IMG/VR virus record: IMGVR_UViG_3300009103_000041 | Span: 1-56,198 of that record | DNA from: a virus | Lineage: Duplodnaviria; Caudoviricetes | Length of the DNA: 56,198 nt | Reading direction: 5' to 3' (one strand) | Shown here: positions 21,437-44,461 of the stretch, piece by piece | Numbering within the stretch: the stretch's first letter is position 1 | Layout: each line of letters opens with the position of its first letter | Translations under genes and position numbers: made by a program | The notes under the pieces: model-generated | Databases searched by the model: none | The model's input: only the letters and a program-made list of their open reading frames with translations | Told to the model about the DNA's origin: nothing

Positions 21437-21709
21437 TTATAGGTTTTTAATGATTTTATTCAGATTTCTAATCTTACTATATTTTTTTAGCTTTTGCAGC
21501 TTAGGTTCTATATTATCATGAATGTTATTGAACTTAACGTATCCATAAAATTCAAGAATCATCATTACAGCCATTAAATCGCCTAGTTCTTTTTCTAATT
21601 TAGCGACATTTACTTCATCATAAGGGCCAAATCTAATTAATTTTGCGGTTGCTTGACTAACTTCAGCAGCCTCTTCTGACAATATAGTCAGTGTTTCTTT
21701 AATATTCAT
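21437..21709 (-). CDS. MazG-like NTP pyrophosphohydrolase
   Basis: EEAAEV...EKELGDL (ExxE...ExxD). Confidence 0.7.
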   Translation of the reverse strand: MNIKETLTILSEEAAEVSQATAKLIRFGPYDEVNVAKLEKELGDLMAVMMILEFYGYVKFNNIHDNIEPKLQKLKKYSKIRNLNKIIKNL

Positions 21710-22960: not shown

Positions 22961-24305
22961 ATTTATTTATTGTCTCTGGCTCGTCCCTTACATTTAATTC
23001 ATGCTTAACACCCAAAGTTTGAGCACTATCTTCCACATCATATAATCTCATCTTAGCCCTATCAACACCTATAACAAACTTTTTATTTTTACCAGTTGGG
23101 TCATTATATCTATTCTTAAGTTGTTTAATCATTAATTGATTTAAGTCTTCTAACTCATCAGTAGATATAATAGCAAACATTAAATCTGCTGTTGCTGGCA
23201 AACCAAATGATTCTGATGTATCTTCAAGTCCAATATCTGAACTGGCGAACCCAGAACGAGTGGTTTGTGTGGCAGTGACAATAGGTAAATTATACTCTAC
23301 TGCCATGCCACGCAATTCTTCAGCAATTGCTTTCACATAAGTATATGAATTAATTGCTCCACCAAGAGCCTTCATTCTTGAACTTGCACATATATTTAAA
23401 TAATCTACACAAATTAAATCAGGTTTAAAGTCTCTCTTAATTTTTAATTCTTTTAATAATGCTCTAAAGTGAATAGCACTTGCTGCTCCTGTAGGATATT
23501 CCTTAACAATTAATTTACCTACACCTTTATCGGTTAGCTTATGCATCTTCTTATCAAACATATCCTTTGACAAATTTTCTAACTGGTCAAGAGGAACATT
23601 CATAAGGTTAGCATCTATTCTCTCAGCAATCCGTTCTTCAGCCATCTCCATAGTTATATATAAAACATTTTTAAATTGGGTTAAAGCGCCGGCTGCTACG
23701 TGACACATAAATAGTGATTTACCTACACCAGTACCTGCCAGAGCCACGTTCAGTGACTTATTAACTAAGCCTCCTTTGGTTATCTCATTGAATTTTACTA
23801 AGTCAAATGGTAGATGTTCCTCTGCTCTATGGTAAAATTCATACCTAGCATCTGAATCATCAACATAATCATGCCCAACCCTTAAGTCAAAATTAACTTG
23901 AAGAGCTTCAGATAATACCTCGGGTAATGCATTCTTGTCTAATGTATCGTGTTTGCCCTCTATAATATTAATAGAGTCCATGATTGCTAGATAGATTGCC
24001 CTATCTTGACACCATTTTTCTGTATGTTCTATTAACCATTCAACAGTTTGCTCACCTTCTTGAACACTAATTTCAGGAATAAGAGCTAAAGAATCTGAAC
24101 CAACCTTTGGATTATTTCTAAGTTCGATTGATAATGCATCGGCACTTGGTAACTTAGAAAATTTATTGACAAAAGAAACTATCTCATTAAAGACAGCCCT
24201 ATAAGGTTCTTCAAAGTATTTAAGTTTTAAGTGTGGGATTACATTTCTAGTATAATCCTCATTCAACATTAAATTTCTAAGGATTAATGTCTCAATCTTC
24301 ATCAT
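22938..24305 (-). CDS. gp41: Replicative DnaB-like helicase (gp41)
   Basis: AGTGVGKS, EMAEE, KEYPT, VDYLNI, ATQTTR, SESFGLP. Confidence 0.97.
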   Translation of the reverse strand: MMKIETLILRNLMLNEDYTRNVIPHLKLKYFEEPYRAVFNEIVSFVNKFSKLPSADALSIELRNNPKVGSDSLALIPEISVQEGEQTVEWLIEHTEKWCQDRAIYLAIMDSINIIEGKHDTLDKNALPEVLSEALQVNFDLRVGHDYVDDSDARYEFYHRAEEHLPFDLVKFNEITKGGLVNKSLNVALAGTGVGKSLFMCHVAAGALTQFKNVLYITMEMAEERIAERIDANLMNVPLDQLENLSKDMFDKKMHKLTDKGVGKLIVKEYPTGAASAIHFRALLKELKIKRDFKPDLICVDYLNICASSRMKALGGAINSYTYVKAIAEELRGMAVEYNLPIVTATQTTRSGFASSDIGLEDTSESFGLPATADLMFAIISTDELEDLNQLMIKQLKNRYNDPTGKNKKFVIGVDRAKMRLYDVEDSAQTLGVKHELNVRDEPETINKYEGFKYE

Positions 24306-25353
24306 CCCAACCTTCTTCTAGGTGTGAGACTTTAATCATATCGGCATGGCCTATTTCATACTTACGTTTTAGAAAATCTTTAAAGTCTGTATTAGCAAAG
24401 ATAGGTTTCCAAAATGATTCCTTAAGTGTTTCAGCTTGACGAACCTTTTTATCTTCTATCTCTCCAGTCTTTTTATCAACCTTAGAGTACCAGCCCATAG
24501 TAGGTTTAACTACATAACCACCTTCCATTGCTGCATCTAATAGACCAGAATATGTTTCAATACCACCTTCCCATGTTACAGATATAGGAATCTTAGATTT
24601 TTCTTTAACAAACCTAGACTTTTCTACATTAATAATAAAATGATAACCTTGAATTTCAGTTCCCTTTTTCTCTTGTTGTCTACCAAGAATCCAGATATTA
24701 TCACTTGAGTAATAAATACCAGTACCACCTGATACAATAGCCTTAGGGAATAAACCAATCTCTTGATATGTGTGATTGACAGCAAGTAATGGAATATCTC
24801 TCATTGTGAGATATGGTGTGGTCATTCTAAATAAACCTTTAAGAGCTTTTGCTCTTGACATATCTGCTACGGATTTCTCACTCATAGTATCATCTAATTC
24901 TTTTTTAGAAGCTAAGTTACCAATAGAATCAATCATAATAATAACTTTATCTTTGCGTTCGATATTCTCTAATTGATTAATTAAATCAAACTTCAGTTCC
25001 TCAACATTAGTAATGGGACTATGGAGTACTCGGGAAGTGTCAATACCGAACGACTTAAAGTATTGCTGGGGTGAGCCAAATTCTGAATCATAAAATAATA
25101 GAACGGCATCTTTATATTTTTCTAAATAAGCAGCCGCTATTAATAATCCAAATGATGTTTTAAAATTCTTTGATGGTCCTGCCAATACAGTTAATCCCGA
25201 GGTTAGTCCACCATCAGGGTCGCCTGATAAAGCGACATTAATCATTGGAACCTTTGTTGGTACCATTTCTTGATTAGAAAAAATCTTGGATTTGTCAAGA
25301 GTATCAGTCTCTTTAATCCTAGAATTCTTTTGTAGTTTATCCATTATACCCAT
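24292..25353 (-). CDS. uvsX: RecA-like recombinase UvsX
   Basis: AGPSKNFKT, YDSEFG, DSIGNLASKKE, DMSRAK. Confidence 0.97.
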   Translation of the reverse strand: MGIMDKLQKNSRIKETDTLDKSKIFSNQEMVPTKVPMINVALSGDPDGGLTSGLTVLAGPSKNFKTSFGLLIAAAYLEKYKDAVLLFYDSEFGSPQQYFKSFGIDTSRVLHSPITNVEELKFDLINQLENIERKDKVIIMIDSIGNLASKKELDDTMSEKSVADMSRAKALKGLFRMTTPYLTMRDIPLLAVNHTYQEIGLFPKAIVSGGTGIYYSSDNIWILGRQQEKKGTEIQGYHFIINVEKSRFVKEKSKIPISVTWEGGIETYSGLLDAAMEGGYVVKPTMGWYSKVDKKTGEIEDKKVRQAETLKESFWKPIFANTDFKDFLKRKYEIGHADMIKVSHLEEGWDDED

Positions 25354-25517
25354 TATTTAGCCCTCATACCTTCATTAATTAATTCATCAATACGATTATT
25401 TAATACACCAATAGTTGTATGTAAATGTCCTGTTCCAGCAGGCTTAATTCTTTTAGTTAAAACTTCTACCTCTTTGCGAAGTACTTTAATTGCATTAATG
25501 ATTTCTTCATTTGCCAT
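25353..25517 (-). CDS. 54-aa hypothetical protein
   Basis: Not in the ORF track; MANEEIINAIKVLRKEVE...TGHLHTTIGVL; SD AGGAG; TAATG overlap with uvsX. Confidence 0.65.
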   Translation of the reverse strand: MANEEIINAIKVLRKEVEVLTKRIKPAGTGHLHTTIGVLNNRIDELINEGMRAK

Positions 25518-25548
25518 TTATATCTCCTATTATTTCAAGTATACTACT

Positions 25549-25578
25549 ATTATATCATAAATCTAAACAAAAGTAAAT
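25549..25578 (-). promoter_or_regulatory. Early promoter (class A) for the uvsX-gp41 unit
   Basis: TTTACT-N17-TATAAT with TG extension. Confidence 0.75.
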
Positions 25579-25582
25579 AGAT

Positions 25583-26818
25583 TTACATAAATTTATCTAA
25601 AGTTAATGGCTCACTTTCTAGGGATTTTGATTTATTATCTTGTATTATAAAGTCATCATATATCATTTCACATCCACCTTCTAAAAATCTTTTAATATTA
25701 TATGCCATATCCTCAGCAGTAGTCACTGGAACATTTTGACATAAGTGATTAAGATTTCTCTTTGGGTCTATCATAATAAAATCTTCTGGCAACTTCATAA
25801 CTGCCATTGCCTCTCTATATGTCAAGTATCTATCTTCATCTGGGTGAGTTAATTTAAAAGGTAGGTGAGCAACAAAAGCTCCAATAAAATCACATGGGAT
25901 TTCAGTACCTCTTCTCATTATATTAGCACCTTTAACTGATAATTTTTTATACATGGCTCTAGCTTTTTCAGCCTTTTCATTTTCATTAATAGTATCTAAC
26001 CAATCTGCATAGTCATTATAATTACTATGAACTTCTATATAGTCTTGAACATTAACACTTCTTTTTAGTGTCTTTTGAAAATCATAATGGCTCATACCAT
26101 TATGCAATACTTCCAATATATATCTGTAATGCAAATCATCTTTACTTGGTATATTTGGATTAGTTAATTCTGACATAGGGTCAGCCATATCAAATTTAGT
26201 ATTACGTATTAAGTCTTCTATTCTCTCATTAGGTCTATCATACCAATCAAACATAGGTATGGCATCTCCTTTCCAAAAGAAATAAAATGACCTGTCCCGT
26301 ACTTGACTTAATCCATGTAATATGCTTTTTGTTTTATATAAAGAAAATGTATAGCCATTCTTTTTTGCTAAAGCTCTTAATTTTTTTACAACCGGCTTGC
26401 CCAAATTGGTAGCTAACCTTGGAGCATTTTCTCCCCATAGTACCTTTGGACCTACTTCCTCTAAGATGTACTTTGCGGTCTTAGCCATATAATCATTTAT
26501 TTCTGCTTCACCTGATGGTGCAACATTTAAAGAAGAGAGACCAGCACATGGACATATAGTATTAACTACATCAACGTACTTTCCATTTTCACCTATTTGT
26601 TGACCATGCCAGATAAATGGTTCTTCTAATATATAATAAGGAACATAGTTTCTACCATCTTCAGGGTCACTGCATTGTTTCCTATAGTGTTCTACTATAT
26701 GCCTATCATTATTTACAAATTCTCTATATGACATCATGTATGCTGGCCTTTTGCCAAATACATTTTCCATTGCTATGGTTCCACCTCCAATAAGAGGTAC
26801 TATACTAGCCCATTTCAT
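25583..26818 (-). CDS. C5 cytosine DNA methyltransferase-like protein (atypical motif I)
   Basis: ICPCAGLS (IV), WGENAP (VI), QVRDR (VIII), RYLTYRE (IX), QNVP (X); motif I reads VPLIGGG. Confidence 0.75.
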   Translation of the reverse strand: MKWASIVPLIGGGTIAMENVFGKRPAYMMSYREFVNNDRHIVEHYRKQCSDPEDGRNYVPYYILEEPFIWHGQQIGENGKYVDVVNTICPCAGLSSLNVAPSGEAEINDYMAKTAKYILEEVGPKVLWGENAPRLATNLGKPVVKKLRALAKKNGYTFSLYKTKSILHGLSQVRDRSFYFFWKGDAIPMFDWYDRPNERIEDLIRNTKFDMADPMSELTNPNIPSKDDLHYRYILEVLHNGMSHYDFQKTLKRSVNVQDYIEVHSNYNDYADWLDTINENEKAEKARAMYKKLSVKGANIMRRGTEIPCDFIGAFVAHLPFKLTHPDEDRYLTYREAMAVMKLPEDFIMIDPKRNLNHLCQNVPVTTAEDMAYNIKRFLEGGCEMIYDDFIIQDNKSKSLESEPLTLDKFM

Positions 26819-28283
26819 TTAATACCTTTTGTAAAAATCTTGTTTGTCGTTTAGAATCGTCATAGTGCAATGGAATACATGTAGCAACAAGTAATAATCC
26901 ACCTTTTAATATAATATCTTTTGGTAAATCATATTCATCTAACTTATGAACAAATAATTCTTTTACGTATTTATTATGTGGAACATCAGCAACAGCTGCA
27001 TTATATCCATAATAACAGTCATGTGCTAACTTAGCCCAATCATAAATATCATCTCCTATTGTTCCAACCTTTCCTCCATAGTTTCCTCTTGGGTCAAGGA
27101 GTTTAAACTGGTCTGTCTGTTGGTTATATAATATATTAGCAAAGTGTAAATCACCATGCATTCCAGAAATTGGAGTAGTATTTTTATGAACTTCATAAGC
27201 CCAATCTAATAATTTTTGTTTAATGCCCTTAGGAAAACCACCAATCCTAGATAGTCTTTCTTCTGTTTTGTCAATCCACATTTTTCTAGATAATCCTGAA
27301 AAACTATCAATGTTACCTACGTTTTGTATTCTATTATTAAAATACTTTAATTTAATTTGAAATATTCTATCCATTATATAATCCCAATGGGAATCAGGCA
27401 TATTTTCATATAGCATTATATCACTTAATAATGTACCAGATTCATATGACATAATTAAATCAACTTTATGTGGTAATATTCTTGGTGTAAATAATGATTG
27501 CTCTGGAGTGAGTGTATCATACCAGGCTTTTTCATCTCTTAATGTTTTTATACTATGTTCATTATGATAGTCAGGACCTTTTCTTATTGTGCCAAGGTCT
27601 GCATCAAAATGTAAATTATTAAATGCGCGAGCTTTTGTATTTAAAAGAGCAGCACAGGTTTTAAAATACCTAGGCAAATCGCCAATGTCGTACCATAGAT
27701 TAGTGGTTACGTTACTAAACTCTCCATATATTTTTAGGGCGCCTGATATATCAGAATCAGCAGTTTCACGAAATGCATCTCTAGCACGGCCGCCATCTTT
27801 AAATGAATATAATCCAACCAATGCTGTACCATTTGGAATTGGTTTATCCGGTTTATTATAATAATCTAAACCATCCCACATACACCAGTTTTTATGGTCA
27901 TCTACAATTTTAGTTAAGAGAAAATCTGTGCCTAATGGCATATCTTTTTCTAAAATAATTGCATCACCTAACCAAACTACAACTGGTTTATCTGGGTCTT
28001 CTAAAGCATTCATACCAATCTTAATAGCATCCCTTGGTCCATCAAAACTTGGTTGATTAGCAAATTTTATGTTTGGATGTTTTACCTCACAGTACTCTCG
28101 GATATCTGAAAATTTTCCATCAATAATAACAATCTCATCAACACTACCATTGACGGCCTCTATTATATAATCAAGGGTTGGTTTACCATTAACACGTACC
28201 ATAATCTTTGACGTGTTGGAAGATAACGGTCTTAATCTTGTTGCCGCTCCGGCCGCTGGTATTACTAAATTGAATCTGTCCAT
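26805..28283 (-). CDS. Sugar-phosphate nucleotidyltransferase fused to an APH/choline-kinase-like domain
   Basis: VIPAAGAATRLRPL..K, WLGD, WYDIG; C-terminal HGDLHFANI, LDPRG, DWAKL. Confidence 0.85.
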   Translation of the reverse strand: MDRFNLVIPAAGAATRLRPLSSNTSKIMVRVNGKPTLDYIIEAVNGSVDEIVIIDGKFSDIREYCEVKHPNIKFANQPSFDGPRDAIKIGMNALEDPDKPVVVWLGDAIILEKDMPLGTDFLLTKIVDDHKNWCMWDGLDYYNKPDKPIPNGTALVGLYSFKDGGRARDAFRETADSDISGALKIYGEFSNVTTNLWYDIGDLPRYFKTCAALLNTKARAFNNLHFDADLGTIRKGPDYHNEHSIKTLRDEKAWYDTLTPEQSLFTPRILPHKVDLIMSYESGTLLSDIMLYENMPDSHWDYIMDRIFQIKLKYFNNRIQNVGNIDSFSGLSRKMWIDKTEERLSRIGGFPKGIKQKLLDWAYEVHKNTTPISGMHGDLHFANILYNQQTDQFKLLDPRGNYGGKVGTIGDDIYDWAKLAHDCYYGYNAAVADVPHNKYVKELFVHKLDEYDLPKDIILKGGLLLVATCIPLHYDDSKRQTRFLQKVLNEMG

Positions 28284-28663
28284 TCTTTAAATTCCTCTAA
28301 GTTCATTGACTTATCATCTACATACCAGGTAGATGAATAGGGTTTACCCCATATAATTTCATCGTATGGAACGTCATGTTCCTTTAACCAATTAATAGTT
28401 ATATCACCTACATCTGCTATGATTGCTTCTACATCACCATCATGTGTTAACATCCTTCTGGCTGTAAGTAAAATAATTTTAAATCCCTTTTCCTTTAATC
28501 TTCTCATACCATTTATAACATCATGGTTTGGAGTTGATAATCCAAACCTTTCTGCTGAACTTACCAAATCCAACCTGGGAAATGATATTGTATGGTCTAT
28601 ATCTATTACTACCGATTCTCTATTTTGTTTTTTAACTAAATCCACGGGTCTCCTAATAACCAC
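28265..28663 (-). CDS. HAD phosphatase (capsule-biosynthesis type)
   Basis: IDIDHTI, LTAR, GKP, YVDDK. Confidence 0.85.
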   Translation of the reverse strand: MVIRRPVDLVKKQNRESVVIDIDHTISFPRLDLVSSAERFGLSTPNHDVINGMRRLKEKGFKIILLTARRMLTHDGDVEAIIADVGDITINWLKEHDVPYDEIIWGKPYSSTWYVDDKSMNLEEFKEWTDSI

Positions 28664-29193
28664 ATTACTAATGAATATCTAGTACCCTTTGTTACTGTAT
28701 CCACTTTGTGCCACATATCAGATGGGAATACACAAATGGAACCTTGATGTGTTATTTTTTTATTTTGTATAGGTGTAGTTATACCATATTTTTCTTCAGG
28801 GTCGAAGTACATAGCGCCACCTTCATATCCATCATTTAAATTTACAGTAACACTTAACTTTCTTATTTTACCATCTATTGGTCTGGAAAACGTATCCCTA
28901 TGCCAATTATAAAATTGACCTTTACCATATTTTGTAAACTGAAGTTGTGGTACTGGTTCCCATTGAAAATTCCATTCAGCTTGTTTATTTGCTAAATTGA
29001 CATAAGGATTTATTATACCTATAATCCATTGGTCATATAACCAAGTTATTTCTGAATCTCTATTAATGCTAACATTACCAGTACCAGTTTTTGCTTTCAT
29101 TGATTTTTGTGCTAAACCATGTTCAATTATTTTATCACATGTCTCTTTAGAAAAAGCTTTATCAAATGTCCAAGCCATATTTTTTACTCTCAT
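28636..29193 (-). CDS. 2OG-Fe(II) oxygenase (PKHD/P4H-like)
   Basis: WHRD, RKLS, YEGG, HKV, RYSLV.W. Confidence 0.9.
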   Translation of the reverse strand: MRVKNMAWTFDKAFSKETCDKIIEHGLAQKSMKAKTGTGNVSINRDSEITWLYDQWIIGIINPYVNLANKQAEWNFQWEPVPQLQFTKYGKGQFYNWHRDTFSRPIDGKIRKLSVTVNLNDGYEGGAMYFDPEEKYGITTPIQNKKITHQGSICVFPSDMWHKVDTVTKGTRYSLVMWLLGDPWI

Positions 29194-30560
29194 GCAAAAA
29201 AGTCCTCTAAGGAAATTTGGCCATCATCTTTTAATTCTTGTTTTGATTTATATACTATTCTTTTTTTCTTTTCAAAATAACTTATGGTTTGATTCATAAC
29301 TTCTTTTGCACCCAACGCTGGTATATGATTTTCCATTACATAATTAAAATGTTCTTTTACATCTGTCTTATAAACATTATCTAGGAAAGTATCATGGTCC
29401 CACTTATTTGTTTGCTTACCAACCTTAGTTATATGTTCTAGCATTGGTGGTATTATATTAGAAGCATCAGTTTCTGTTTTAAGAAATTCTATGCCAGCAT
29501 CTAAATATCTATTATAGGCACCTTCATCTTTTGAAATTCTATGTATTTGCTCTTTAGTATTTTCTAAATCATTTCTATCAGACCAAATAGCTATATCATG
29601 GTCAGAGAATGCTTTACCATTTTCAGCCTTATTATATAATCCATAGTCAATATCAAATATTGGAACTGTCCCTACAGCAATTATTTCCATTTGAGCATAT
29701 TCAAATCTATCACCATAGTTATGTCTTTCTTTTGGTAAAGCATAACCACTATATCCAAACATACTATTAGCTATAAGGTTCATACCCTCTTGATATTCAT
29801 AAGGACCAAATGATTCCATTAGTTCTCTACCAGCATAATAAGTATATCCATTAAACTTTGCTTGATATTCTGTTCTATCTATAATATCAAACTTAGCTCC
29901 AATAGACCTTTCAATTCCATGAATCGCATAATGAAAATCTTTATCCATTTCCCAAAGGTCAATTAATCTACTTGGGTGTTTCATTGAAGTCCAACGACTT
30001 GCGTATATACAAGATTTATTTTTGTCCTTAAATGGTATTCTATATTTTTCATAATCAGAAACTGTTATAGGTAATTTCATTCTTGCTATTCTTTCACCAA
30101 GCTTTTTATTGGTTAAAATACCAGCCATGTCCTGTGAGTATGTGGTTTCTGTAGAGAAATTAAATATTATATCAGCAGCATTAGATATTGCTAAGTGAAT
30201 TGGTATTCTGTCATAGTTCATTCTTTTAATCTCATGCATCATACTAACCAATATAGGTTTCTTTATTTGTAGAACTAAATCATAATAGAAACTCTTAATG
30301 GTTTCTCTTTTATGCATGGGACTTGGATAACTATTTAATATTACAATATCATAATTGTCATTTAATCTCTTTGCAATATCTAGCATCTCACTAGGTTTAA
30401 AAGAAATTGATTCTTTAATATGGCCACCCGACCTAACAAAATTTCTTTCAGCTAAATTAAATATATCAATATTGTCTGGGTCATAGCGTTTCCACTCATA
30501 ACCATATTTCTCAACTCCACAGCCATCAAGGCCTTTTCCAAATACTATTGCTATTTTCAT
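29190..30560 (-). CDS. agt: DNA glycosyltransferase, T4 alpha-glucosyltransferase-like (GT-B)
   Basis: GKGLDGCGVEK N-terminus, NSYP, MMHE, RW...K, GIERS, RFEYAQME resemble T4 AGT; adjacent to gp42. Confidence 0.8.
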   Translation of the reverse strand: MKIAIVFGKGLDGCGVEKYGYEWKRYDPDNIDIFNLAERNFVRSGGHIKESISFKPSEMLDIAKRLNDNYDIVILNSYPSPMHKRETIKSFYYDLVLQIKKPILVSMMHEIKRMNYDRIPIHLAISNAADIIFNFSTETTYSQDMAGILTNKKLGERIARMKLPITVSDYEKYRIPFKDKNKSCIYASRWTSMKHPSRLIDLWEMDKDFHYAIHGIERSIGAKFDIIDRTEYQAKFNGYTYYAGRELMESFGPYEYQEGMNLIANSMFGYSGYALPKERHNYGDRFEYAQMEIIAVGTVPIFDIDYGLYNKAENGKAFSDHDIAIWSDRNDLENTKEQIHRISKDEGAYNRYLDAGIEFLKTETDASNIIPPMLEHITKVGKQTNKWDHDTFLDNVYKTDVKEHFNYVMENHIPALGAKEVMNQTISYFEKKKRIVYKSKQELKDDGQISLEDFFA

Positions 30561-31279
30561 TGTGCTGGGCTATAATCAACCCACATTTGTTTAGGTTTAA
30601 TTAAGTCAAAATGTTTTTCATAAACATGGAGGTTTTGAACCTGCCAAATCATATCACCTACATCTACATTTAAATCATTAGCTAATTCATGTAATACAAA
30701 TTGTTGCCATGCATAATCATTTTTATATCCATACACAACATCATTACTGCGCATTGATACTGAACAATTAAGGTGGTCATTACGAATATAATAAGCTACT
30801 GAATTAGTACATATAAAATCAGAACAACCATTCATATTATATTCATTCCAAATTTCTGGTCTATTATAAATCATCATAGCTCTTCTTGAATTAGGATTAG
30901 CTTTTAATTCCTCTAAGCATTTGTCATATTGATTATGATTATCTTCATGCCATATTAAATAACCATAATTGGAATGAATCCAACCCTCATCAGAAGCGGC
31001 ATATTGCCATGCCTCTGGTGGACTTTTACCAAATCCATATATGTCATTAATATTTAAAGACATGGATTGGTACCAATCAATTTCTTTTTTAATGTATTCT
31101 ATATTTGGTGTACCGAATATTGCGGGTTCATCTGCTAGAAATGACGCACCAATTAATTCAATACACTTAACGCCTGTCTTATCTATTGTTTGGCCATAAT
31201 TACCGCCTTGTTTGGCGCCAATAAAATAGTCACGGACATCCGCTACTTTATGTGGTCTTATTAACATTATATCTATCAT
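30557..31279 (-). CDS. gp42: dCMP hydroxymethyltransferase (gp42, thymidylate synthase fold)
   Basis: SNYG, SRRA, DFICT, MRSNDVVYGYKNDYAW with the dCMP-specifying Asp, LHVY. Confidence 0.9.
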   Translation of the reverse strand: MIDIMLIRPHKVADVRDYFIGAKQGGNYGQTIDKTGVKCIELIGASFLADEPAIFGTPNIEYIKKEIDWYQSMSLNINDIYGFGKSPPEAWQYAASDEGWIHSNYGYLIWHEDNHNQYDKCLEELKANPNSRRAMMIYNRPEIWNEYNMNGCSDFICTNSVAYYIRNDHLNCSVSMRSNDVVYGYKNDYAWQQFVLHELANDLNVDVGDMIWQVQNLHVYEKHFDLIKPKQMWVDYSPAQ

Positions 31280-31565
31280 CCATTTCTGGATGCTCCATTT
31301 GGTGTACCATTAAAATTAACATTTGGGTGGTGGCATGAGCTAAATGAGATTTACCAGATTCAGGGTCAATATCTTCACCTTCCCAAAATTTATTGAGGTG
31401 ACGTTGAATAGAAGAATAAGTGCGAGCCCATTCTGTTTTGTCACCATCATCTCGCCAATTATTCATACCATATTTTTCAGCACCAAACCGAAATACATCG
31501 GCTACTTCATAAAGAGGTTCAGGTGGAATTAGAGCCATAGGTGGCTTTTCTTTATCAAATTTCAT
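31248..31565 (-). CDS. dNTP diphosphohydrolase (DUF5664-like)
   Basis: KFDKEK, FGAEKYG..NW, RHL, DPESGKSHLAHA. Confidence 0.85.
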   Translation of the reverse strand: MKFDKEKPPMALIPPEPLYEVADVFRFGAEKYGMNNWRDDGDKTEWARTYSSIQRHLNKFWEGEDIDPESGKSHLAHATTQMLILMVHQMEHPEMDDRYNVNKTT

Positions 31566-31571
31566 AACTAT

Positions 31572-31600
31572 ATTATATCATATTTCATGGTGATTGTACA
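31572..31600 (-). promoter_or_regulatory. Early promoter heading the DNA-modification operon (leaderless)
   Basis: TGTACA-N17-TATAAT; ATG 6 nt downstream. Confidence 0.7.
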
Positions 31601-32013
31601 TAGATTCCCTGTAAAAAATAATTTAATTTATTATCATGTACCCAGATATATAATTTCTTTTCTATATCATATGCTTCATTAGCTCTTTCTAAAACATAAG
31701 GAACATAATGGGGTTGTGAAGTAGCTTTTTGTTCAGCTGGGTCTCCTTCTGGTTCAATTACATCTTTATAATCTCTAGGGTCATCTTTAAAATGTTTAAA
31801 TTGAATTAAATAATATTCAGGTGCATGACCAATTAAAACTGTTTGTAAAATTTTTTCTAAGGTTCTATTCTTACGTGTAGATTTTTTATTATAAATTAGT
31901 TGTGCTTCAGCTTTAGCTCTTGCAACAAATGGACTTTGGTCTAAATCCTTTACATTAAATTTCCAAGGAGAATCTTTTTTAGTGTACTCAATTATTGGAG
32001 TAAACATATTCAA
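31585..32013 (-). CDS. Hypothetical protein, possible PD-(D/E)XK fold
   Basis: GHAPEYYL...YKDVI...AEQK. Confidence 0.55.
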   Translation of the reverse strand: MNMFTPIIEYTKKDSPWKFNVKDLDQSPFVARAKAEAQLIYNKKSTRKNRTLEKILQTVLIGHAPEYYLIQFKHFKDDPRDYKDVIEPEGDPAEQKATSQPHYVPYVLERANEAYDIEKKLYIWVHDNKLNYFLQGIYVQSP

Positions 32014-32917
32014 TTGCTCTATCTGCTTCTTTTTTTAAAGGTCTATTATCATACCAACCACCATTGTCCATATCAATTTGTCTGCATAATTCTGCAATTT
32101 CCTGAGAAGTAATTGGATATTTTTTGCGTATTGCAATACCAGCAATGGATGTCATAATAGCATACATCTTTGCATACCAACCCGTATCAGTTATTTGATT
32201 ATATTCTTTAACTAATTTCTTATTGACAAATGGACAATCTTTATAATTATTCCAAGTGATATTTGTATTTGTCATTGAATTTTTACGGTGAGCGAGTACC
32301 TGTGCTCTCATTTCTGGAGGTAGATTATCTAATAAAGAACCAGTGCGTTCTACATAATCGTGTTTACTTATGATTTCAAGTGGGTCCATGTCAACCCCGT
32401 TAAAATTATTGTATATAAAATTATATGCACCCTCATATTTCCCAGGGATATAATACATCCTAGATAAATCTTTTGTTTGAGGGTCACCAACATCTCCTAA
32501 CTCTTTATTAAGAGCATACCAAAAATGTTTAATTGAATTTTTTCCTAAGGCTTTTTTTAATGGAAAGACCATTCTAAATTTTGGTTTTTCATATGTGGAT
32601 GATGCCGTACTATAGCATATATAGTTCCATTTACTATATTTTTTAACTATCTCTTCTGTAAGGGTATCACCATGCCAATTACCTTCATCTATATCTACAG
32701 CACACCAACCAGCCCAACCTAAGACATTATCATTTGCCCTTGTTGTTTTTTCTGTGTATATGGCAGGTGATATTAAAGGAGCTGATTTTTTATCTTTACG
32801 AGGTTCTTGCGCTAAATCAAAAAACATTTTTTCAAAGGACATATATGAATTAAAGTTTAAACGCTTATGCGTTTTATTGTCATATATTGATTTAAATATT
32901 GTAAGTGAATAATTCAA
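31988..32917 (-). CDS. Archaeo-eukaryotic primase (PrimPol-like) protein
   Basis: AVDID (I), YSTASS..PKFRMV (II), DPQTKDLSRMYYIP (III), helical C-domain; likely TTG start at 32917. Confidence 0.7.
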   Translation of the reverse strand: MNYSLTIFKSIYDNKTHKRLNFNSYMSFEKMFFDLAQEPRKDKKSAPLISPAIYTEKTTRANDNVLGWAGWCAVDIDEGNWHGDTLTEEIVKKYSKWNYICYSTASSTYEKPKFRMVFPLKKALGKNSIKHFWYALNKELGDVGDPQTKDLSRMYYIPGKYEGAYNFIYNNFNGVDMDPLEIISKHDYVERTGSLLDNLPPEMRAQVLAHRKNSMTNTNITWNNYKDCPFVNKKLVKEYNQITDTGWYAKMYAIMTSIAGIAIRKKYPITSQEIAELCRQIDMDNGGWYDNRPLKKEADRAIEYVYSNN

Positions 32918-33084
32918 GTTACTTTCTCTATGTTTCCTTTTTTCCAACCATCATATTCTTTTTTCCATTTAGTATGTTCATTAACAGTGAGGTCATGAAC
33001 AGTTTTACCTTTATACCTTTGCAACCATAAGTCGTAGGTATGTGTTTTAGAAAATATCCAGTCGTTCCAAGATTGTTTAGCCAT
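32914..33084 (-). CDS. 56-aa Trp-rich hypothetical protein
   Basis: Not in the ORF track; MAKQSWNDWIFSKTHTYDLWL...; fills the gap. Confidence 0.55.
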   Translation of the reverse strand: MAKQSWNDWIFSKTHTYDLWLQRYKGKTVHDLTVNEHTKWKKEYDGWKKGNIEKVT

Positions 33085-33086
33085 AA

Positions 33087-33281
33087 TTAATGCACCTTTG
33101 GTATTTCGGGTGTTAAAATATCATCCCGACTTTTTAATATATGTTCAGTCATTACTTTAAATTCATCTTCAGATAACATGGCTTTATAAATTTTCATTGC
33201 TTGTGCCATCATTATTCCTGCAGCCATTAACGGCTCATGATTTATTGTTAATTTTTCATACTTTTCATATAATTCATCCAT
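33087..33281 (-). CDS. Hypothetical protein
   Basis: Coupled 64 aa ORF with SD GAGG. Confidence 0.65.
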   Translation of the reverse strand: MDELYEKYEKLTINHEPLMAAGIMMAQAMKIYKAMLSEDEFKVMTEHILKSRDDILTPEIPKVH

Positions 33282-33895
33282 TATTTTACCTCATCTTTTC
33301 TAATAGTTTCAACTGCTCTACCATATTTTTCAATAGCATCTGGTGTCCACTTAGTATTATACTTACCACTAATTTCAGTTCTAGCTTTATTTGCTTTCAT
33401 TGCTTTTTTTAGTAGCTCTTTGTCATGTATCATTTTTTCTAATGCTGCCTCTTGTTCCTCAGTCCAAATTTCTTCTTGGACATTACCCTTATGGGATTGA
33501 GGTATAAGACCATGATTACCTTCATGACTTGGTGCTTTCCAATCTTTTGGTTTAATCATATCAGGAATTCCTAATGGATTTGGTCGTTCAGGTTTTACTC
33601 CGGCCTCCTTTGCCATATTAGCTTTCATAACTGTATCCCATGCTTTATGTGGATTAACACCTAATGCATCTAACGTACCAATAGCAACAACACACAAATC
33701 AATAAGACCATCAACAAGTTCTTCAGAATCCTCATAAATAATTGCCTCTCGTGTTTCTTCCATTTCCTCTTTAAGAAAATCATATCTAAATTTTATGTAT
33801 TTCCTCAACATAAAAGGACTAGCATTTGCTATCCAATTACGTACGCCAAATTTGGTTTGCATTCTATTAATATCATTTACCCAATCTGCACTCAT
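33281..33895 (-). CDS. MazG/PRA-PH-like NTP pyrophosphohydrolase
   Basis: EEMEE...EELVDGLID, ANMAK, KPKDWKAP. Confidence 0.8.
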   Translation of the reverse strand: MSADWVNDINRMQTKFGVRNWIANASPFMLRKYIKFRYDFLKEEMEETREAIIYEDSEELVDGLIDLCVVAIGTLDALGVNPHKAWDTVMKANMAKEAGVKPERPNPLGIPDMIKPKDWKAPSHEGNHGLIPQSHKGNVQEEIWTEEQEAALEKMIHDKELLKKAMKANKARTEISGKYNTKWTPDAIEKYGRAVETIRKDEVK

Positions 33896-33947: not shown

Positions 33948-36470
33948 TTAAACGAAAAAAGATTCTAAAGAAATAGTCTTTTCGCTTTTCCAACCAACTG
34001 CATCTAATACTGGTTCAATCGCACTAATAAATGTCTTTTCAAATTGAAGGTTATAATCTATATAATCCTCAAGCTTAAATTGCTTTGGTAAAAAATCAAT
34101 AAATGAAATGACATTCTCTTTTATAGGATTTGGCATAACAAGGTATGTGAATTTAACCTTGTCGCCACTATGTATTTTTTCTATTTTTCTTTGAAGTTTT
34201 TGGTCATCAATTAAATGATTATGTAATATTGCTCCCCTCACATGAATTGGTGTACCCTTTTTATATATAGATTCTTTATCAATCCATTTGCGAATATTTT
34301 GCACAGACCGAGGAAAACTAACTTCCTCAGCTGCCGCTTGAGAGAATACTTTCTTAAAATTTTGTATATCACTTTGGACTGTCTGTTCATCAGTCTCAAT
34401 AATTCTTTTAAACATATCTTTTAATGCTTCCCTGCATATTGCTGGAGTACTTGACTTGATAGCTTCAATACCCATAATTTTTAAATGAGGATTTGTATAA
34501 CGAACACCTTCATTGTCATACACATTTAATATGTATCTTTTCTTTGCTGTCCATATACCTCTATTAGCAATTACTTCTCGTCCCATAACCATTTTATTTT
34601 CATAACCACCAAGTGAAATATATAGCTCATTAAAAGCTTCTTTAAGAGCATCTTCTATTGCGGTGGAACATAATTTATCTAAAAAGTTAATAGGGTTTGC
34701 TGGTTTAAAACGTTTAATAAATTCATCAAGGGTGACATACACTGAATCAGTATCAATAGCAATCACATAGTCTTTGTCAGTTTTTAAAGTCTTATTAAGA
34801 TATTCATTCAAATATTTCTCTGCCCATTTGATAGTTGCTTGGCCAGTAAGAGTAATAGCTTCAGCAATTCTCATATCAAAATACCTAAACCATTTATTAC
34901 CTATAGCGCCATATAAACTATTAAGAAGAATCTTAAGAGCCATTTGCTGATTTTTAGCTAAGGCAATACGCTTTTCAATATCATATTGCTCTGACTTACT
35001 GCCGGACAATTCTAATTCTTGTTCAGCTTTAATTTGTTTTTGTTTGAATTTAACCCGTTCATCATAGATTTTTTGGATTACTTGTGGGAATACACCACGC
35101 TTTTTACAATCAAAGCGGGTACCATTAACAGCTAATCCTGTATAGCGATGCGTATTTTTAATTTTATTATTAAGAACAGATTCAACATTAGTACCAGGCT
35201 CATCATCAAGTAATATAGTCTCAGGTGACATATTGTATTGCATAATGATTGATGGATATAGAGAGTTCAAGTCAAATGAACATACCCAATCATGCATTCC
35301 CACTTGAGGTTCTTTAACATACCCACCAGGATATGCACTTTTAAATGATTCCTCATTTTGTGGTATTGCTATTTTATGCTCATATAGATGTCTATAAATT
35401 AATGAATCCCAAATAGCAACAGTCCCTAGAACTGAATCATAATTGACACCACCTTTATATGCCATTGTCAAACATAAAGTAATAAGTCCAAGCTTATCTT
35501 CCATACGGTCTATAAGCTCAACGTCTTTTATATTATAATCAATAAACTTTTGATAGTCATTTGTATATAATTCATTTAAATTAGAAGCCTCACCGAAGTC
35601 AAGTTTCTTTTCACCAAGAACTATATTAGCAATATGGTCTAACTTATAAGATTCTTGTGGACCATGTTGATAACTAAACTTTTTAAAGATAGCCATATAG
35701 TCAAGAATAGTAATACCCTTTAGTTCATATCTAGTACGAATTTGTCCATAGCCCGTGTTGATTTCTCTTTTGTCTACCATTCTCCACGGAGATAGGAATT
35801 TCATTTTATTCTCACCATTAACTTTAGCTATTCTATTAACTAAGTAAGGAATATCAAAAAACTCTACGTTCCAACCAGTAATAACATCGGGTGATGTCTT
35901 TGCCATGTGATATACAAACTTGTGTAAGAGCTCATGTTCGGTTTGACATTTAATATATCTTACCTCATGAGTTTGCATAAGGGATTTACTCTTGTCATAA
36001 TCGCCACAGCCAAATGTATAATAGACATCATCTATATTGTTTTTCATTGTGATGGCTGTAATCTCTTGGTCGGCTATATCTGGGTCAGGGAAACCATCTC
36101 CATATTTTACTTCAATATCAAGTGAAGTAACATTAATAATATTTCTATCCCATTCTATATTTCCAGGAAATTTCTCATTAAGAAATTGCGCAACATAATT
36201 AGTATTACCATATATTTTAAAGTTAGGAACATCTTTATATTGTTTTATAAAATCAGTAGACTCACTCATACTTCCAAACGCAATTGGTTCTACTGGTGTG
36301 CCATCAAGTGCAGTCCAGCTGATTAGAGTCATTGTTTTATCTTCTTTGCTTGGGACGTATAAGGTTGGTGCGTATGGAACAGTATAGCTTACTTTTTTAC
36401 CATTCTTATAACCAGTATATTTGATTACTTTTCCGTGACGAAAAGCGTTAGTGTAAAAAGTATTATTCAT
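33948..36470 (-). CDS. gp43: Family B DNA polymerase (gp43)
   Basis: LDIE, GWNVEFFDIPY, YNIKD, DLNSLYPS, KILLNSLYG, DTDS, KKRY. Confidence 0.99.
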   Translation of the reverse strand: MNNTFYTNAFRHGKVIKYTGYKNGKKVSYTVPYAPTLYVPSKEDKTMTLISWTALDGTPVEPIAFGSMSESTDFIKQYKDVPNFKIYGNTNYVAQFLNEKFPGNIEWDRNIINVTSLDIEVKYGDGFPDPDIADQEITAITMKNNIDDVYYTFGCGDYDKSKSLMQTHEVRYIKCQTEHELLHKFVYHMAKTSPDVITGWNVEFFDIPYLVNRIAKVNGENKMKFLSPWRMVDKREINTGYGQIRTRYELKGITILDYMAIFKKFSYQHGPQESYKLDHIANIVLGEKKLDFGEASNLNELYTNDYQKFIDYNIKDVELIDRMEDKLGLITLCLTMAYKGGVNYDSVLGTVAIWDSLIYRHLYEHKIAIPQNEESFKSAYPGGYVKEPQVGMHDWVCSFDLNSLYPSIIMQYNMSPETILLDDEPGTNVESVLNNKIKNTHRYTGLAVNGTRFDCKKRGVFPQVIQKIYDERVKFKQKQIKAEQELELSGSKSEQYDIEKRIALAKNQQMALKILLNSLYGAIGNKWFRYFDMRIAEAITLTGQATIKWAEKYLNEYLNKTLKTDKDYVIAIDTDSVYVTLDEFIKRFKPANPINFLDKLCSTAIEDALKEAFNELYISLGGYENKMVMGREVIANRGIWTAKKRYILNVYDNEGVRYTNPHLKIMGIEAIKSSTPAICREALKDMFKRIIETDEQTVQSDIQNFKKVFSQAAAEEVSFPRSVQNIRKWIDKESIYKKGTPIHVRGAILHNHLIDDQKLQRKIEKIHSGDKVKFTYLVMPNPIKENVISFIDFLPKQFKLEDYIDYNLQFEKTFISAIEPVLDAVGWKSEKTISLESFFV

Positions 36471-36819: not shown

Positions 36820-37200
36820 TTACCTGTGTTGTTTTGATTTGTAATCTTTTATTGCCGTTTTAATTGAATCTTCAGCTAAAACTGAGCAATGGATTTTGAC
36901 TGGAGGTAAGTTAAGTTGTTCAACCACCTCTGTATTTTTTATTTGTGTTGCTTCATCAAGGGTCATACCTTTAAGCATTTCTGTTATAATAGAAGAAGAT
37001 GCTATTGCAGAACCACAGCCATAACATTTAAATACTGCATCCTGTATAATATCTTTCTCTACTTTAATTTGTAGCTTCATAACATCACCACAAGAAGGAG
37101 CACCTACCATACCAGTTCCAACATTTTTATCATTAATATCCATCTTACCCACATTGCGTGGATTGTTATAATGGTCTAAAACTGCGCCTGAATATGCCAT
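36820..37200 (-). CDS. iscU: Fe-S scaffold IscU
   Basis: NPRNVG, GAPSCGDVM, YGCGSAIAS, LPPVKIHCS. Confidence 0.96.
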   Translation of the reverse strand: MAYSGAVLDHYNNPRNVGKMDINDKNVGTGMVGAPSCGDVMKLQIKVEKDIIQDAVFKCYGCGSAIASSSIITEMLKGMTLDEATQIKNTEVVEQLNLPPVKIHCSVLAEDSIKTAIKDYKSKQHR

Positions 37201-37219
37201 AGTGCTCCTTAGTATTTAT

Positions 37220-37678
37220 TTACCCAAGCAATAGCTTTTTAGCGTGCTTAGGTAGGTCACCTAAATTGATAGTTTGAGGCTTGTCCTCTTCTGGAATATC
37301 ATTCTCCAAAACAACAACAAGCAATCCATCTATAATGTCAGCTCCAACAACCTTAATTGTGTCGCTTAAAGTAAATGAACGCTCAAACGCCCTTTGAGAA
37401 ATACCACGATGTGTGTAATCTCTCTTATCTGAATCGCTATGTCTGCGACCAGATATAGTTAAAACCCCTTTTTCAAGAGTTAAGTCAATGTCTTCTTTCT
37501 TAAATCCTGCAACAGCGATTTCAATTAAAAAGTGACCGTCATCTCTTTTAACAACATTGTAAGGTGGATACCCTACGCCTCTGGCGGCTTGCATGTTTGT
37601 TTCCGCTAGTGTGTTAAAGAGTGAATCAAATCCCAGGAATGTATCCCTCGGGAAGTTAGTAAATGCTAAGTTTGTCAT
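37220..37678 (-). CDS. hsp20: Small heat-shock protein (Hsp20/IbpA-like)
   Basis: YPPYN, IEIAVAGF, HRGIS.RAFERSFTL, DGLL. Confidence 0.95.
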   Translation of the reverse strand: MTNLAFTNFPRDTFLGFDSLFNTLAETNMQAARGVGYPPYNVVKRDDGHFLIEIAVAGFKKEDIDLTLEKGVLTISGRRHSDSDKRDYTHRGISQRAFERSFTLSDTIKVVGADIIDGLLVVVLENDIPEEDKPQTINLGDLPKHAKKLLLG

Positions 37679-37682
37679 AATG

Positions 37683-37756
37683 ACCTCCTATATATAGCAA
37701 GGTTATAAAATGTGGCTTCATGCCACGGTTATTGACAGCCCTTTCGGCACCGTCAA
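37683..37756 (-). promoter_or_regulatory. ROSE-type RNA thermometer in the hsp20 5' UTR
   Basis: Three hairpins; the last, ACCUUGCUA-UAUA-UAGGAGGU, pairs UUGCU (bulged G) with the SD. Confidence 0.8.
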
Positions 37757-37759
37757 ATC

Positions 37760-43759: not shown

Positions 43760-44461
43760 TTATTCCTTATATGTTGTTGTCTTATCAAGGGCAACCCAAT
43801 ACTTGATGTTGCCAGCCATTACAGAAGCAATAAGCTTCTTATCAATACCAAATTCATATGAATCGGCACCGATGAATTTAAAATTATTCATATCAAAAAC
43901 AAAATCAAATTCTGCAGAAGTATTTATACTGCAATTTGAGATGTTCATTGTGAATTGATTTGAAGTTGGATTAGATTTATCAACAATGGTGCATTCAATA
44001 AAGTGTGAACCAGTGGTACTTTTTCTTACACTCAATGTGTTTGTCCTAAGAGTTCCAGCTGCTTTTCTTAATTGCATCATTTGGTCATGAGTTAAAGTGA
44101 AAGTTATATCACTACATTCTAACTCAATGTCCTTGGTAGGCACTGTCAACGTGTCAATCTCAGAGAAAAAATACTTAAAGGTTGTGATACCATCTGTAAT
44201 AATCACATACTTTTTATCATCATCAAATGACAATGTTGGGTCATCAAACATATTAAGACAACTTAGGAATTCTCCTAGGTCATATATGCCAAAAGTATAT
44301 GGCCATTGATATGGTACCTCGGGTTCTATGTTCGCCTTCGCCATGAGTGTTTTAGACACCGACATGGTGCGTATAAACCCACCTTCCTCTCCTAAGGCAA
44401 TATTACTATTAATAGATTGAAAGTTATTTAGTGCTTCAATTATTTCATTACTAAGTTTCAC
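43760..44461 (-). CDS. gp45: Sliding clamp (gp45)
   Basis: MKLS...NFQSIN, FGIYDLGEFL, YWVAL. Confidence 0.93.
   Translation of the reverse strand: MKLSNEIIEALNNFQSINSNIALGEEGGFIRTMSVSKTLMAKANIEPEVPYQWPYTFGIYDLGEFLSCLNMFDDPTLSFDDDKKYVIITDGITTFKYFFSEIDTLTVPTKDIELECSDITFTLTHDQMMQLRKAAGTLRTNTLSVRKSTTGSHFIECTIVDKSNPTSNQFTMNISNCSINTSAEFDFVFDMNNFKFIGADSYEFGIDKKLIASVMAGNIKYWVALDKTTTYKE

Follow-up and report, generated by a model that had tools for sequence, protein, structure and literature searches.

A predicted cytosine-hypermodification locus with an exchangeable glycosyltransferase and sugar-gene cassette in an uncultured marine T4-like phage

Two pairings of modified cytosine and sugar donor are known in phages related to T4: 5-hydroxymethylcytosine (5hmC) with uridine diphosphate (UDP)-glucose taken from the host in T-even phages, and 5-hydroxycytosine (5hoC) with UDP-arabinose made by the phage itself in phages of the RB69 kind. 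According to the available text of PMC13326640, RB69 and DLP3 make 5hoC via a thymidylate-synthase homolog, and the sugar is activated by a kinase that phosphorylates arabinose 5-phosphate (A5P) at C1 (He et al., as cited there), a phosphatase that then takes off the 5-phosphate, and a nucleotidyltransferase that makes UDP-arabinose, the resulting chemistry being arabinosyl-5hoC and not arabinosyl-5hmC. The general principle of phage-made nucleoside diphosphate (NDP)-sugars on modified cytosine is already published, and glycosylated cytosines govern the cutting of phage DNA by restriction enzymes, CRISPR nucleases, and type IV systems. We analyzed a seven-gene cluster at positions 25583 to 31600 of IMG/VR record IMGVR_UViG_3300009103_000041, a 56,198-nucleotide fragment of a T4-like phage (31-36% G+C; the sole contig of its record), which as a whole we call the window. 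We consider this cluster probably to be a cytosine-hypermodification module of an uncultured marine T4-like phage, combining a 5hmC base with a sugar activated by the phage.

A first-pass annotation made from the sequence had proposed a cytosine-hypermodification operon here, and a hypermodification locus is supported by a gp42-type hydroxymethylase, a glycosyltransferase (GT) of the T4 alpha-GT family, and sugar genes of the RB69 kind. Searches of Pfam, PHROGs, NCBIfam, and Protein Data Bank (PDB) sequences bore out all of the domain calls, and the seven open reading frames (ORFs) are real, codirectional on the minus strand, and tightly packed, with overlaps in order of 32, 4, 4, 28, 19, and 14 nt (Table 1). 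We also confirmed the location of the cluster between the genes for gp43 and UvsX, which is the slot of gene 42 and beta-gt in T4. Homologs of gp32, gp59, gp41, uvsX, gp43, gp44/62, gp45, gp46/47, and gp55 are present in the window. Its gp43 shares no more than 50% identity with the polymerase of any phage isolate, those of marine phages and cyanophages coming closest, and megablast with the 6-kb region gave no match among 50,697 phage records. The proposal that one promoter drives the cluster was not supported: a sigma-70 scan gave 56 sites, which is chance level, shuffled sequence giving 50.7 +/- 7.2. The genes upstream of the cluster are packed just as closely (a 19-nt gap, then a 26-nt overlap), and the minus strand holds 76 of the 77 nonoverlapping ORFs of at least 70 amino acids (aa) in the window. 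A terminator scan found no minus-strand terminator in 25200-33400.

The hydroxymethylase homolog is 52% identical to T4 gp42 versus 26% to RB69 gp48, and its PDB matches were T4 deoxycytidine monophosphate (dCMP) hydroxymethylase (1b49) at E 6.3e-71 versus 9iqu/9iqc at 8.6e-14. Its catalytic Cys157 is invariant across our alignments. The available text of PMC13326640 gives as a rule for dCMP hydroxymethylases an Asp at the position of Escherichia coli N177 and an acidic residue at that of L143, and it reports Asn at E. coli position 169 in every 5-hydroxy-dCMP (5hodCMP) synthase assayed there. The Asp of the KNDY motif, which had been noted as retained, is indeed kept as Asp188 at the N177 position (N177D; dCMP rather than deoxyuridine monophosphate), and Asp154 is the acidic residue at the L143 position. 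At E. coli D169 the window enzyme has Asp180, where our alignment places Asn in RB69 and PhT2, so that the residue diagnostic of 5hodCMP synthases is missing. Because of this Asp and the 52% identity to T4 gp42, we predict from the sequence that the modified base is 5hmC and not 5hoC, and we reject the alternative of hydroxycytosine that had been left open earlier. The gp42-type residue signature was common to all homologs in the related contigs, Pseudoalteromonas phage vB_Psh_XG4 (XG4), Enterococcus phage 9183, and the second copy in Bacillus phage G.

The nucleoside triphosphate (NTP) diphosphohydrolase that opens the cluster gave nothing at E <= 0.1 in a PDB sequence search, and a DUF1599 protein replaces it in distant relatives, at the same place in contig L031. 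We also observed that this diphosphohydrolase is 98% identical in contigs where the adjoining hydroxymethylase falls to 72-75%, with divergence shifting abruptly at the gene border.

The GT was matched to PF11440 (46.2 bits, cut-off 25), phrog_2888 (1.3e-70), and PDB 1xv5 (E 1.2e-20). It is 26% identical to T-even a-gt and 34% identical to gp306 of Bacillus phage G, its best match among isolates, and it carries a C-terminal extension that ends in a polymerase-like tail.

The GT is accompanied by a small HAD phosphatase and a nucleotidyltransferase-kinase fusion. The phosphatase matched TIGR01689 (2.2e-21) and Pfam HAD_PNKP, both below cut-off, as well as PDB 1xpj (2.2e-15) and 9iqw (0.0036); it is 30% identical to RB69 gp51 (E 9e-7) and has the DxDxT motif as D21-x-D23-x-T25. 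By these likenesses it would remove the nonanomeric phosphate of a sugar bisphosphate. The fusion consists of an N-terminal sugar-1-phosphate nucleotidyltransferase and a C-terminal kinase resembling APH and methylthioribose kinases, the architecture of RB69 gp52:53 (AfhE). Pfam missed the kinase half, which was revealed by fold: in the AF2 model (pLDDT 86.6), residues 4-218 match RmlA 6b5e (Z 23.4, rmsd 2.1, 209 aligned), and also MurU and LicC, while residues 208-492 match aminoglycoside 2''-phosphotransferase 3tdv (Z 17.2, rmsd 3.5, 243 aligned) and residues 204-492 match 5-methylthioribose kinase 2pyw (Z 16.6). Foldseek with the whole model returned nucleotidyltransferases only, and the kinase half emerged in a wide VIA search alone. 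The fusion aligns end to end with the unsplit ortholog of RB69 ORF052c in Acinetobacter phage PhT2 (23%, E 2e-15), with which it shares the kinase catalytic-loop motifs HGDxxFxN and DPRG, and it is 27% identical to a 559-aa protein of XG4. Its H376-G-D378...N383 and D397-P-R-G motifs were invariant in 18 sequences. We therefore read the fusion, on homology and modeled fold, as a putative NDP-sugar synthase, and by analogy the three-step AfhE/AfhF scheme is the best reading for the fusion and HAD phosphatase, the identity of the sugar aside.

Since the HAD phosphatase and fusion are homologous to RB69 gp51 and gp52:53 and occupy the same slot between gp43 and uvsX, we considered whether the locus is simply an RB69/DLP3-type system placing arabinose on 5hoC. 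There is only a very slim chance of this. The ThyA homolog has Asp rather than Asn at the diagnostic position and is twice as close in identity to T4 gp42 as to RB69 gp48, and the GT is alpha-GT-like, not the GT4-like arabinosyltransferase described for RB69/DLP3 in the available text of PMC13326640. Furthermore, we found no SIS-domain or A5P isomerase in the 64 other ORFs of the window (56 kb of a larger genome) and no SIS-domain isomerase in any of five related records (the complete XG4 genome and four fragments; the control detected it in 14 of 14 genomes). What is supported is the earlier suggestion that the phage combines an enzyme of the alpha-GT family with its own RB69-like genes for an NDP-sugar.

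To place the cluster among its relatives, we collected 54 related loci from three IMG/VR scans, two queried with the C5-methyltransferase-like (MTase-like) protein or a homolog of it and one with the GT, and mapped them by tblastn with Pfam and PHROG scans, counting loci on one contig once. A related-locus scan with the XG4 MTase-like protein gave eight pattern matches, none of which was confirmed. A cassette type could be assigned on 35 contigs, and nine further loci were too short to type. Type A (14 contigs) has the GT, HAD phosphatase, and fusion of the window; eight of these contigs form a distant lineage at 67-73% identity. In type B (5 contigs), a 470-aa GT of the alpha-GT family is accompanied by a 355-aa protein whose start is HAD-like and by a cytidylyltransferase-like protein, and type C (13 contigs) combines a 424-aa alpha-GT with a short SDR epimerase. 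Type D (2 contigs) pairs an XG4-like GT with a nucleotidyltransferase-HAD fusion, and type E (1 contig) contains a 355-aa protein together with an FAD oxidoreductase and two proteins that are epimerase-like and xylose-isomerase-like, respectively. The slot that these sets occupy always had the hydroxymethylase gene at one end and the MTase-like gene, uvsX, and gp41 at the other; distant lineages have a dCMP deaminase after the hydroxymethylase. As a check independent of the MTase-like query, we turned to the distant loci obtained with the GT, and in all seven that extend far enough the MTase-like gene followed the fusion.

Alignment with relatives of types B and C showed DNA homology stopping at window positions 30514/30591 and resuming at 26815/26819, and these breakpoints are the end of the hydroxymethylase gene and the start of the MTase-like gene. 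In the same relatives gp43, uvsX, and gp41 are 89-94% identical to those of the window, and the GTs fall to 22-23%. The sharp DNA borders and the conserved core set against divergent GTs show the GT, HAD phosphatase, and fusion to be one exchangeable module. Thus, these three genes are a single cassette that has been swapped wholesale for at least four other sets of GT plus sugar genes in relatives. Neighborhood conservation had been suggested as a check on the proposed operon; the GT, HAD, and fusion genes do travel together, but the 2-oxoglutarate (2OG)-Fe(II) oxygenase gene is not part of the conserved set. Because other sugar-gene sets replace the cassette, the glycan would differ between closely related phages. 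L031, the only distant type-A contig whose ORFs were scanned, has a second, TAGT-like GT upstream of the main GT. This 280-aa protein (L031:7063-7905; phrog_842, beta-glucosyl-HMC alpha-glucosyltransferase, 4e-20) has a clamp-type tail, is likewise placed across the distant type-A lineage, and would allow a disaccharide.

The inheritance and exchange of the GT together with the sugar genes argue that the GT uses a phage-made rather than a host donor. From this coinheritance we infer that the donor is an NDP-sugar made by the cassette itself. The acceptor would be 5hmC DNA, and the transferred sugar is presumably not glucose. A competing explanation is that the end product is ordinary alpha-glucosyl-5hmC, with host UDP-glucose used directly or with the cassette securing NDP-glucose in a host poor in glucose nucleotides. 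The GT does belong to the T4 alpha-glucosyltransferase family, the nucleotidyltransferase half of the fusion is nearest in fold to glucose-1-phosphate thymidylyl- and uridylyltransferases, and no pentose-specific isomerase was found in the window ORFs or the five related records. We nevertheless regard glucosyl-5hmC as unlikely, though it deserves to be kept in view. The GT is only 26% identical to the T-even alpha-GT. The fusion as a whole is homologous to the arabinose enzyme, and its kinase half is similar to kinases that act on aminoglycosides or on the anomeric position of pentoses. Within one lineage the GT is swapped with nonhomologous sugar genes (an epimerase, a cytidylyltransferase-like gene, or an FAD oxidoreductase with an isomerase-like gene), which is difficult to reconcile with glucose as the product of every cassette.

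The combination of gp42-type ThyA, GT, and sugar nucleotidyltransferase also occurs in XG4, Bacillus phage G, and Enterococcus phage 9183, with a HAD protein annotated or matched in the latter two. This distribution bears on the idea that the GT and sugar genes are auxiliary genes remodeling a host surface polysaccharide, as the available text of PMC7029224 proposes for glycosyltransferases, rfaE, and UDP-glucose dehydrogenase of pelagimyophages. Consistent with such a role, the HAD phosphatase weakly matches the capsule-biosynthesis phosphatase family TIGR01689, and the window has other host-like genes (TctA, NifU, and a GH5 cellulase). We find this role very unlikely, since the GT family PF11440 is DNA specific, the GT gene adjoins the hydroxymethylase gene within the replication module, where T4 has beta-gt, the GT has a polymerase-type tail, and the same gene set stands alongside gp42-type enzymes in four unrelated phage lineages.

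Two genes of the cluster lie outside the three-gene cassette in function or inheritance and had been invoked for further oxidation or methylation of the base. The 2OG-Fe(II) oxygenase had Pfam matches to PF13640, PF03171, and PF13661 only, its best solved relatives were PKHD hydroxylases (PDB 3dkq, 3.2e-5), and Pfam did not find a Tet_JBP-type domain in it. The gene is absent from four near-identical type-A contigs (L007, L008, L009, and L010), where it is the sole missing piece, and DNA homology to L008 and L009 skips window positions 28645-29191 exactly, which makes the gene a clean 547-bp insertion. We also detected the oxygenase in L006 (100%) and in the type-C contig L020 (63%). The oxygenase is an accessory passenger rather than a pathway step, and neither further oxidation, given a PKHD/prolyl-hydroxylase-type enzyme that near-identical contigs lack, nor the proposal that all seven genes are one functional unit is supported. 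In L020 (1408-2507), the 63%-identical copy lies inside the cassette together with an MT-A70 adenine-methylase-like gene, an arrangement suggesting that the oxygenase moves as a small mobile unit. Within the window's 2OG gene, we observed a perfect 12-of-12 sigma-70 consensus (TTGACA, 17 nt, TATAAT) in antisense at 28997-29025 (+), which may be chance in AT-rich DNA.

The MTase-like protein adopts the fold of C5-cytosine methyltransferases, its AF2 model (pLDDT 79.2) matching CmoX (8yf3; Z 19.6, rmsd 3.7, 280 aligned) and M.HaeIII (1dct; Z 19.6). In 19 sequences reaching down to 46% identity, the target-base motifs CPC, ENA, QxRDR, RxLTxRE, and QNVP were invariant, corresponding to Pro-Cys of motif IV, Glu-Asn of motif VI, Gln/Arg/Arg of motif VIII, and motifs IX and X. 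Motif I reads (I/V)-P-L-(I/V)-G-G, not the canonical FxGxGG, and the 19-sequence alignment contained no conserved ribose-binding Glu or adenine-binding Asp in motif II/III. In hhalign, the alignment of this family with a canonical phage methylase begins only at motif IV. Methylation as suggested earlier thus depends on a protein in which the S-adenosylmethionine (SAM)-binding motifs are not conserved; moreover, because 5hmC would replace cytosine, a cytosine methylase would be without substrate in such DNA. C5-methyltransferases can act on 5hmC without SAM. The MTase-like family is large, with 2144 of the 3701 candidates that were scored falling at E <= 0.001, and a Protein Atlas look-up returned its own family only, named as C5 methylases. 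Homologs in isolated phages were found in nine records, namely XG4, five from cyanophages of the S-TIM5 group, two from Bacillus phage G, and one canonical streptococcal methylase. Those of XG4 and phage G adjoin gp42-type ThyA, GT, and sugar nucleotidyltransferase genes. The protein is a conserved companion of the hypermodification locus and a well-defined candidate for new chemistry.

A carboxymethyltransferase of the CmoX kind was tried as one such chemistry and rejected: by the criteria in the available text of PMC12783734, where an Arg at the position of M.HhaI 304 binds the carboxymethyl group, the window protein has neither the SPPC motif nor Arg at M.HhaI N304, with CPC and Asn362 in their places. 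As a separate observation, the ThyA of cyanophage S-TIM61 (L039:5757-6593), encoded ~2.4 kb from an MTase-like homolog, has Asp at the N177 position, pointing to dCMP as its likely substrate; in this one record examined, the residue hints at modified cytosine in S-TIM5-group cyanophages.

With an MTase-like gene, an oxygenase gene, and a GT gene adjacent in the window, the first two might instead form a postreplicative methyltransferase/TET-type route to 5hmC that feeds the GT, and phage clusters of MT, 5mYOX, and GT are described in the available text of 10.1101/2023.12.21.572611. This route is barely credible here, however, with an oxygenase of PF13640/PKHD rather than Tet_JBP type that is absent from four near-identical contigs retaining everything else, an MTase-like protein without conserved SAM-binding motifs, and a prereplicative hydroxymethylase present.

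Both the GT and the MTase-like protein end in tails resembling that of the phage polymerase. The C-terminal tail of T4/RB69-type polymerases binds the sliding clamp, and the tail of the window polymerase is of the type found in T4 and RB69 polymerases (tails from AV119 and RB69 loci). The last eight codons of the GT gene (29193..29216, -) encode an L-E-x-F-F-type tail almost equal to it, and the MTase-like protein ends in L-x-L-D-K-F-M. A strict L-[DE]-x-F-[FML] motif within three residues of the end occurred in 3 of the 79 window ORFs, these being the polymerase, the GT, and the MTase-like protein. We observed the motif on all seven GTs examined from cassette types A, B, and C and on none of six other GTs or candidates (type D, type E, two of XG4, and two of phage G). 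Among MTase-like homologs, 101 of 115 full-length proteins carried it (120 listed, five shorter than 380 aa dropped), compared with 0/120 fusion homologs and 0/120 clamp homologs. The T6 alpha-GT is without the motif; nevertheless, binding to gp45 has been reported for the alpha-GT of T4 (Sommer 2004, which the available text of PMC13216743 cites and confirms).

When gp45 was modeled in complex with the C-terminal 40 residues of the MTase-like protein, the score was 0.42, against 0.00 for the best of three controls, with runs agreeing in at least 53% of contacts and a partner pLDDT of at least 38. Of 80 solved complexes, 58 reached the mark for this score, as did 2 of 110 mismatches; among those reaching it, a score of 0.60 or less was seen for only 7 of the 80 solved complexes and for both mismatches. 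A like complex, of a clamp with a polymerase peptide, has already been solved, and so the pass may reflect memory or likeness only. The prediction lends weak support to a contact between gp45 and the tail of the MTase-like protein. Because the GT and MTase-like protein end in a polymerase-type tail, the gp45 clamp probably brings both to newly made DNA.

These results suggest the following model for 5hmC carrying a phage-activated sugar. Before replication, the NTP diphosphohydrolase and hydroxymethylase, whose folds and residues we identified, would convert deoxycytidine triphosphate (dCTP) and dCMP to 5-hydroxymethyl-dCMP, which would be phosphorylated and incorporated into DNA instead of C. 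The kinase half of the fusion would phosphorylate the anomeric carbon of a host sugar phosphate as in the AfhE/AfhF route, the HAD phosphatase would take off the other phosphate, and the nucleotidyltransferase half, recognized by homology and architecture, would form an NDP-sugar from a substrate that we can only suppose. After replication, the alpha-GT-family enzyme would place the sugar on the hydroxymethyl group, with the gp45 clamp bringing the tailed GT and MTase-like protein to new DNA.

Several points weigh against this model. Relatives of the fusion from isolated phages share only 23-27% identity with it, so that the sugar cannot be read from homology, and the cassette could simply make UDP-glucose. 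The isomerase searches described above count here as well, all characterized Afh-type phages encoding an A5P isomerase to our knowledge. That the NTP diphosphohydrolase supplies dCMP from dCTP is a guess, and the window holds two further MazG-like genes (21437-21709 and 33281-33895), for the second of which tblastn returned generic MazG hydrolases in 146 records, none at 80% or more query coverage, and no T4 gp56. Collecting related loci with three query proteins skews the sample, and the clamp-tail reading draws on sequence likeness and a weak prediction.

We also considered a bolder joint reading, in which a glycan-switching slot, modification tethered to the replication fork, and a SAM-less MTase-fold protein that chemically processes 5hmC or glycosyl-5hmC occur together. 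Each lineage of a very abundant marine T4-like family would plug in its own GT-plus-sugar cassette, the enzymes would be tethered to the sliding clamp via polymerase-like tails, and the MTase-fold protein, having no canonical SAM pocket, would flip the base and add its Cys at C6 and would not methylate cytosine. If true, this protein would represent a new DNA-modifying activity. Taken jointly, these proposals are speculative, and we would not expect all of them to hold.

Table 1. Positions and principal matches of the cluster genes and of other window features named in the text
Feature	Position	Strand	Match or basis	Note
C5-cytosine-methyltransferase-fold protein	25583..26818	-	DNA_methylase PF00145 4.9e-13, residues 82-376 only	3' border of cassette
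Nucleotidyltransferase-kinase fusion, 492 aa	26805..28283	-	NTP_transferase PF00483 1.2e-10 and fold of C-terminal half	
Small HAD phosphatase, RB69 gp51/AfhF kind	28265..28663	-	phrog_1238 2.4e-21	
2OG-Fe(II) oxygenase, PKHD/prolyl-hydroxylase type	28636..29193	-	2OG-FeII_Oxy_3 PF13640 3.7e-16	
DNA glycosyltransferase, T4 alpha-GT family, 456 aa	29190..30560	-	AGT PF11440, phrog_2888, PDB 1xv5	
T4 gp42-type dCMP hydroxymethylase	30557..31279	-	Thymidylat_synt PF00303 2.6e-21	5' border of cassette
Small all-alpha NTP diphosphohydrolase (dGTP_diPhyd_N)	31248..31565	-	PF18909 E 4.7e-31, phrog_801 8.2e-39	
UvsX recombinase	24292..25353	-	PF21134 4.8e-16, phrog_97 5e-85	Downstream border (context)
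gp43 DNA polymerase	33948..36470	-	46-50% identity to cyanophage and other marine phage polymerases	Context
gp45 sliding clamp	43760..44461	-	PF09116 3.6e-07	Context
Short SDR epimerase, 237 aa	53029-53742	-	PF01370/phrog_540 2.6e-44	
Short UDP-glucose-dehydrogenase-like gene, 285 aa, without C-terminal domain	53739-54596	-	PF00984/phrog_9148 1.4e-38	
gp55	54586-55167		phrog_234	

Elsewhere in the window, we observed a second pair of sugar-nucleotide genes (53029-54596, -) between gene 55 and gene 47, which is the position of alpha-gt in T4. The SDR epimerase of this pair is 39% identical (E 3e-41) to the epimerase within the cassette of type-C relatives, and by this likeness the pair may be a second DNA-sugar locus. 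A 142-aa ORF without family match (31585-32013, -) immediately precedes the cluster on its upstream side; window positions 31586-31987 have no DNA homology to L008 or L009, and unrelated sequence replaces the ORF in these near-identical contigs. The adjacent 319-aa protein (31988-32947, -) matches the N-terminal part of a phage primase family only (phrog_9765, 2.8e-53) and is kept between gp43 and the modification cluster in every relative reaching that far. Host-like auxiliary genes at 36820-40781, 11681-11992, 2183-2857, and 44835-45941 (all -) encode a NifU-like scaffold, HSP20, a TctA tricarboxylate transporter subunit, an Fe-S assembly protein, a protein-isoaspartate methyltransferase, and a GH5 cellulase-family protein.

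The swapping of a GT and sugar genes as a unit among uncultured marine phages with ~90% core identity gives a genomic picture of a DNA-glycan arms race. It also suggests that sugar genes of marine myophages interpreted as surface remodeling may serve DNA modification. The conserved clamp-tailed MTase-fold protein, with more than 2,000 homologs, is a candidate for new chemistry. Our literature search, which covered main texts (that of PMC13326640 without its supplements), found no paper on this combination, on cassette exchange, or on a tailed MTase-like protein, and it found no study of XG4 or phage G DNA.

Compared with known systems, the window shares with XG4 and the gp301-gp313 region of Bacillus phage G the grouping of a gp42-type ThyA, a sugar nucleotidyltransferase, a GT, and an MTase-like homolog (29% identical in XG4 and 24% in phage G), and the XG4 nucleotidyltransferase is fused to a kinase as in the window. 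Of these two phages, a HAD protein was confirmed in phage G only, the XG4 candidate being a 131-aa ORF without Pfam match. Both differ from the window in having just 27-34% identity and no clamp-type tails, and the XG4 GT belongs to another family. CmoX, tied with M.HaeIII among the best structural matches of the MTase-like protein, is a phage DNA cytosine C5-carboxymethyltransferase that uses the C5-MTase fold with a non-SAM donor (available text of PMC12783734); the window protein differs in having no SPPC or Arg304 equivalent, and the window has no CmoA.

The Afh arabinosyl-5hoC cluster of RB69, DLP3, and HY126 resembles the window in the HAD phosphatase and fusion, which are homologous to AfhF and AfhE, in an adjacent thymidylate-synthase homolog, and in genomic slot. 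In contrast to that cluster, the window has a base enzyme of the hydroxymethylase type with Asp and not Asn at E. coli 169, a GT that is alpha-GT-like and not GT4-like, and neither an A5P isomerase nor a thymidylate-kinase-like gene in its cluster. With gene 42, alpha-gt, and beta-gt of T4 it shares a gp42-type hydroxymethylase, an alpha-GT-family transferase, and the slot between gp43 and uvsX, and the T4 alpha-GT is likewise reported to bind gp45 (available text of PMC13216743). Unlike T4, which draws on host UDP-glucose and has no sugar-activation genes, the window adds a C5-MTase-fold gene, and its GT, 26% identical, has a C-terminal extension with a tail that the T6 alpha-GT lacks. The system of the window is therefore T-even-like for base and transferase and Afh-like for sugar activation, joining the 5hmC route to an Afh-like route of sugar activation.

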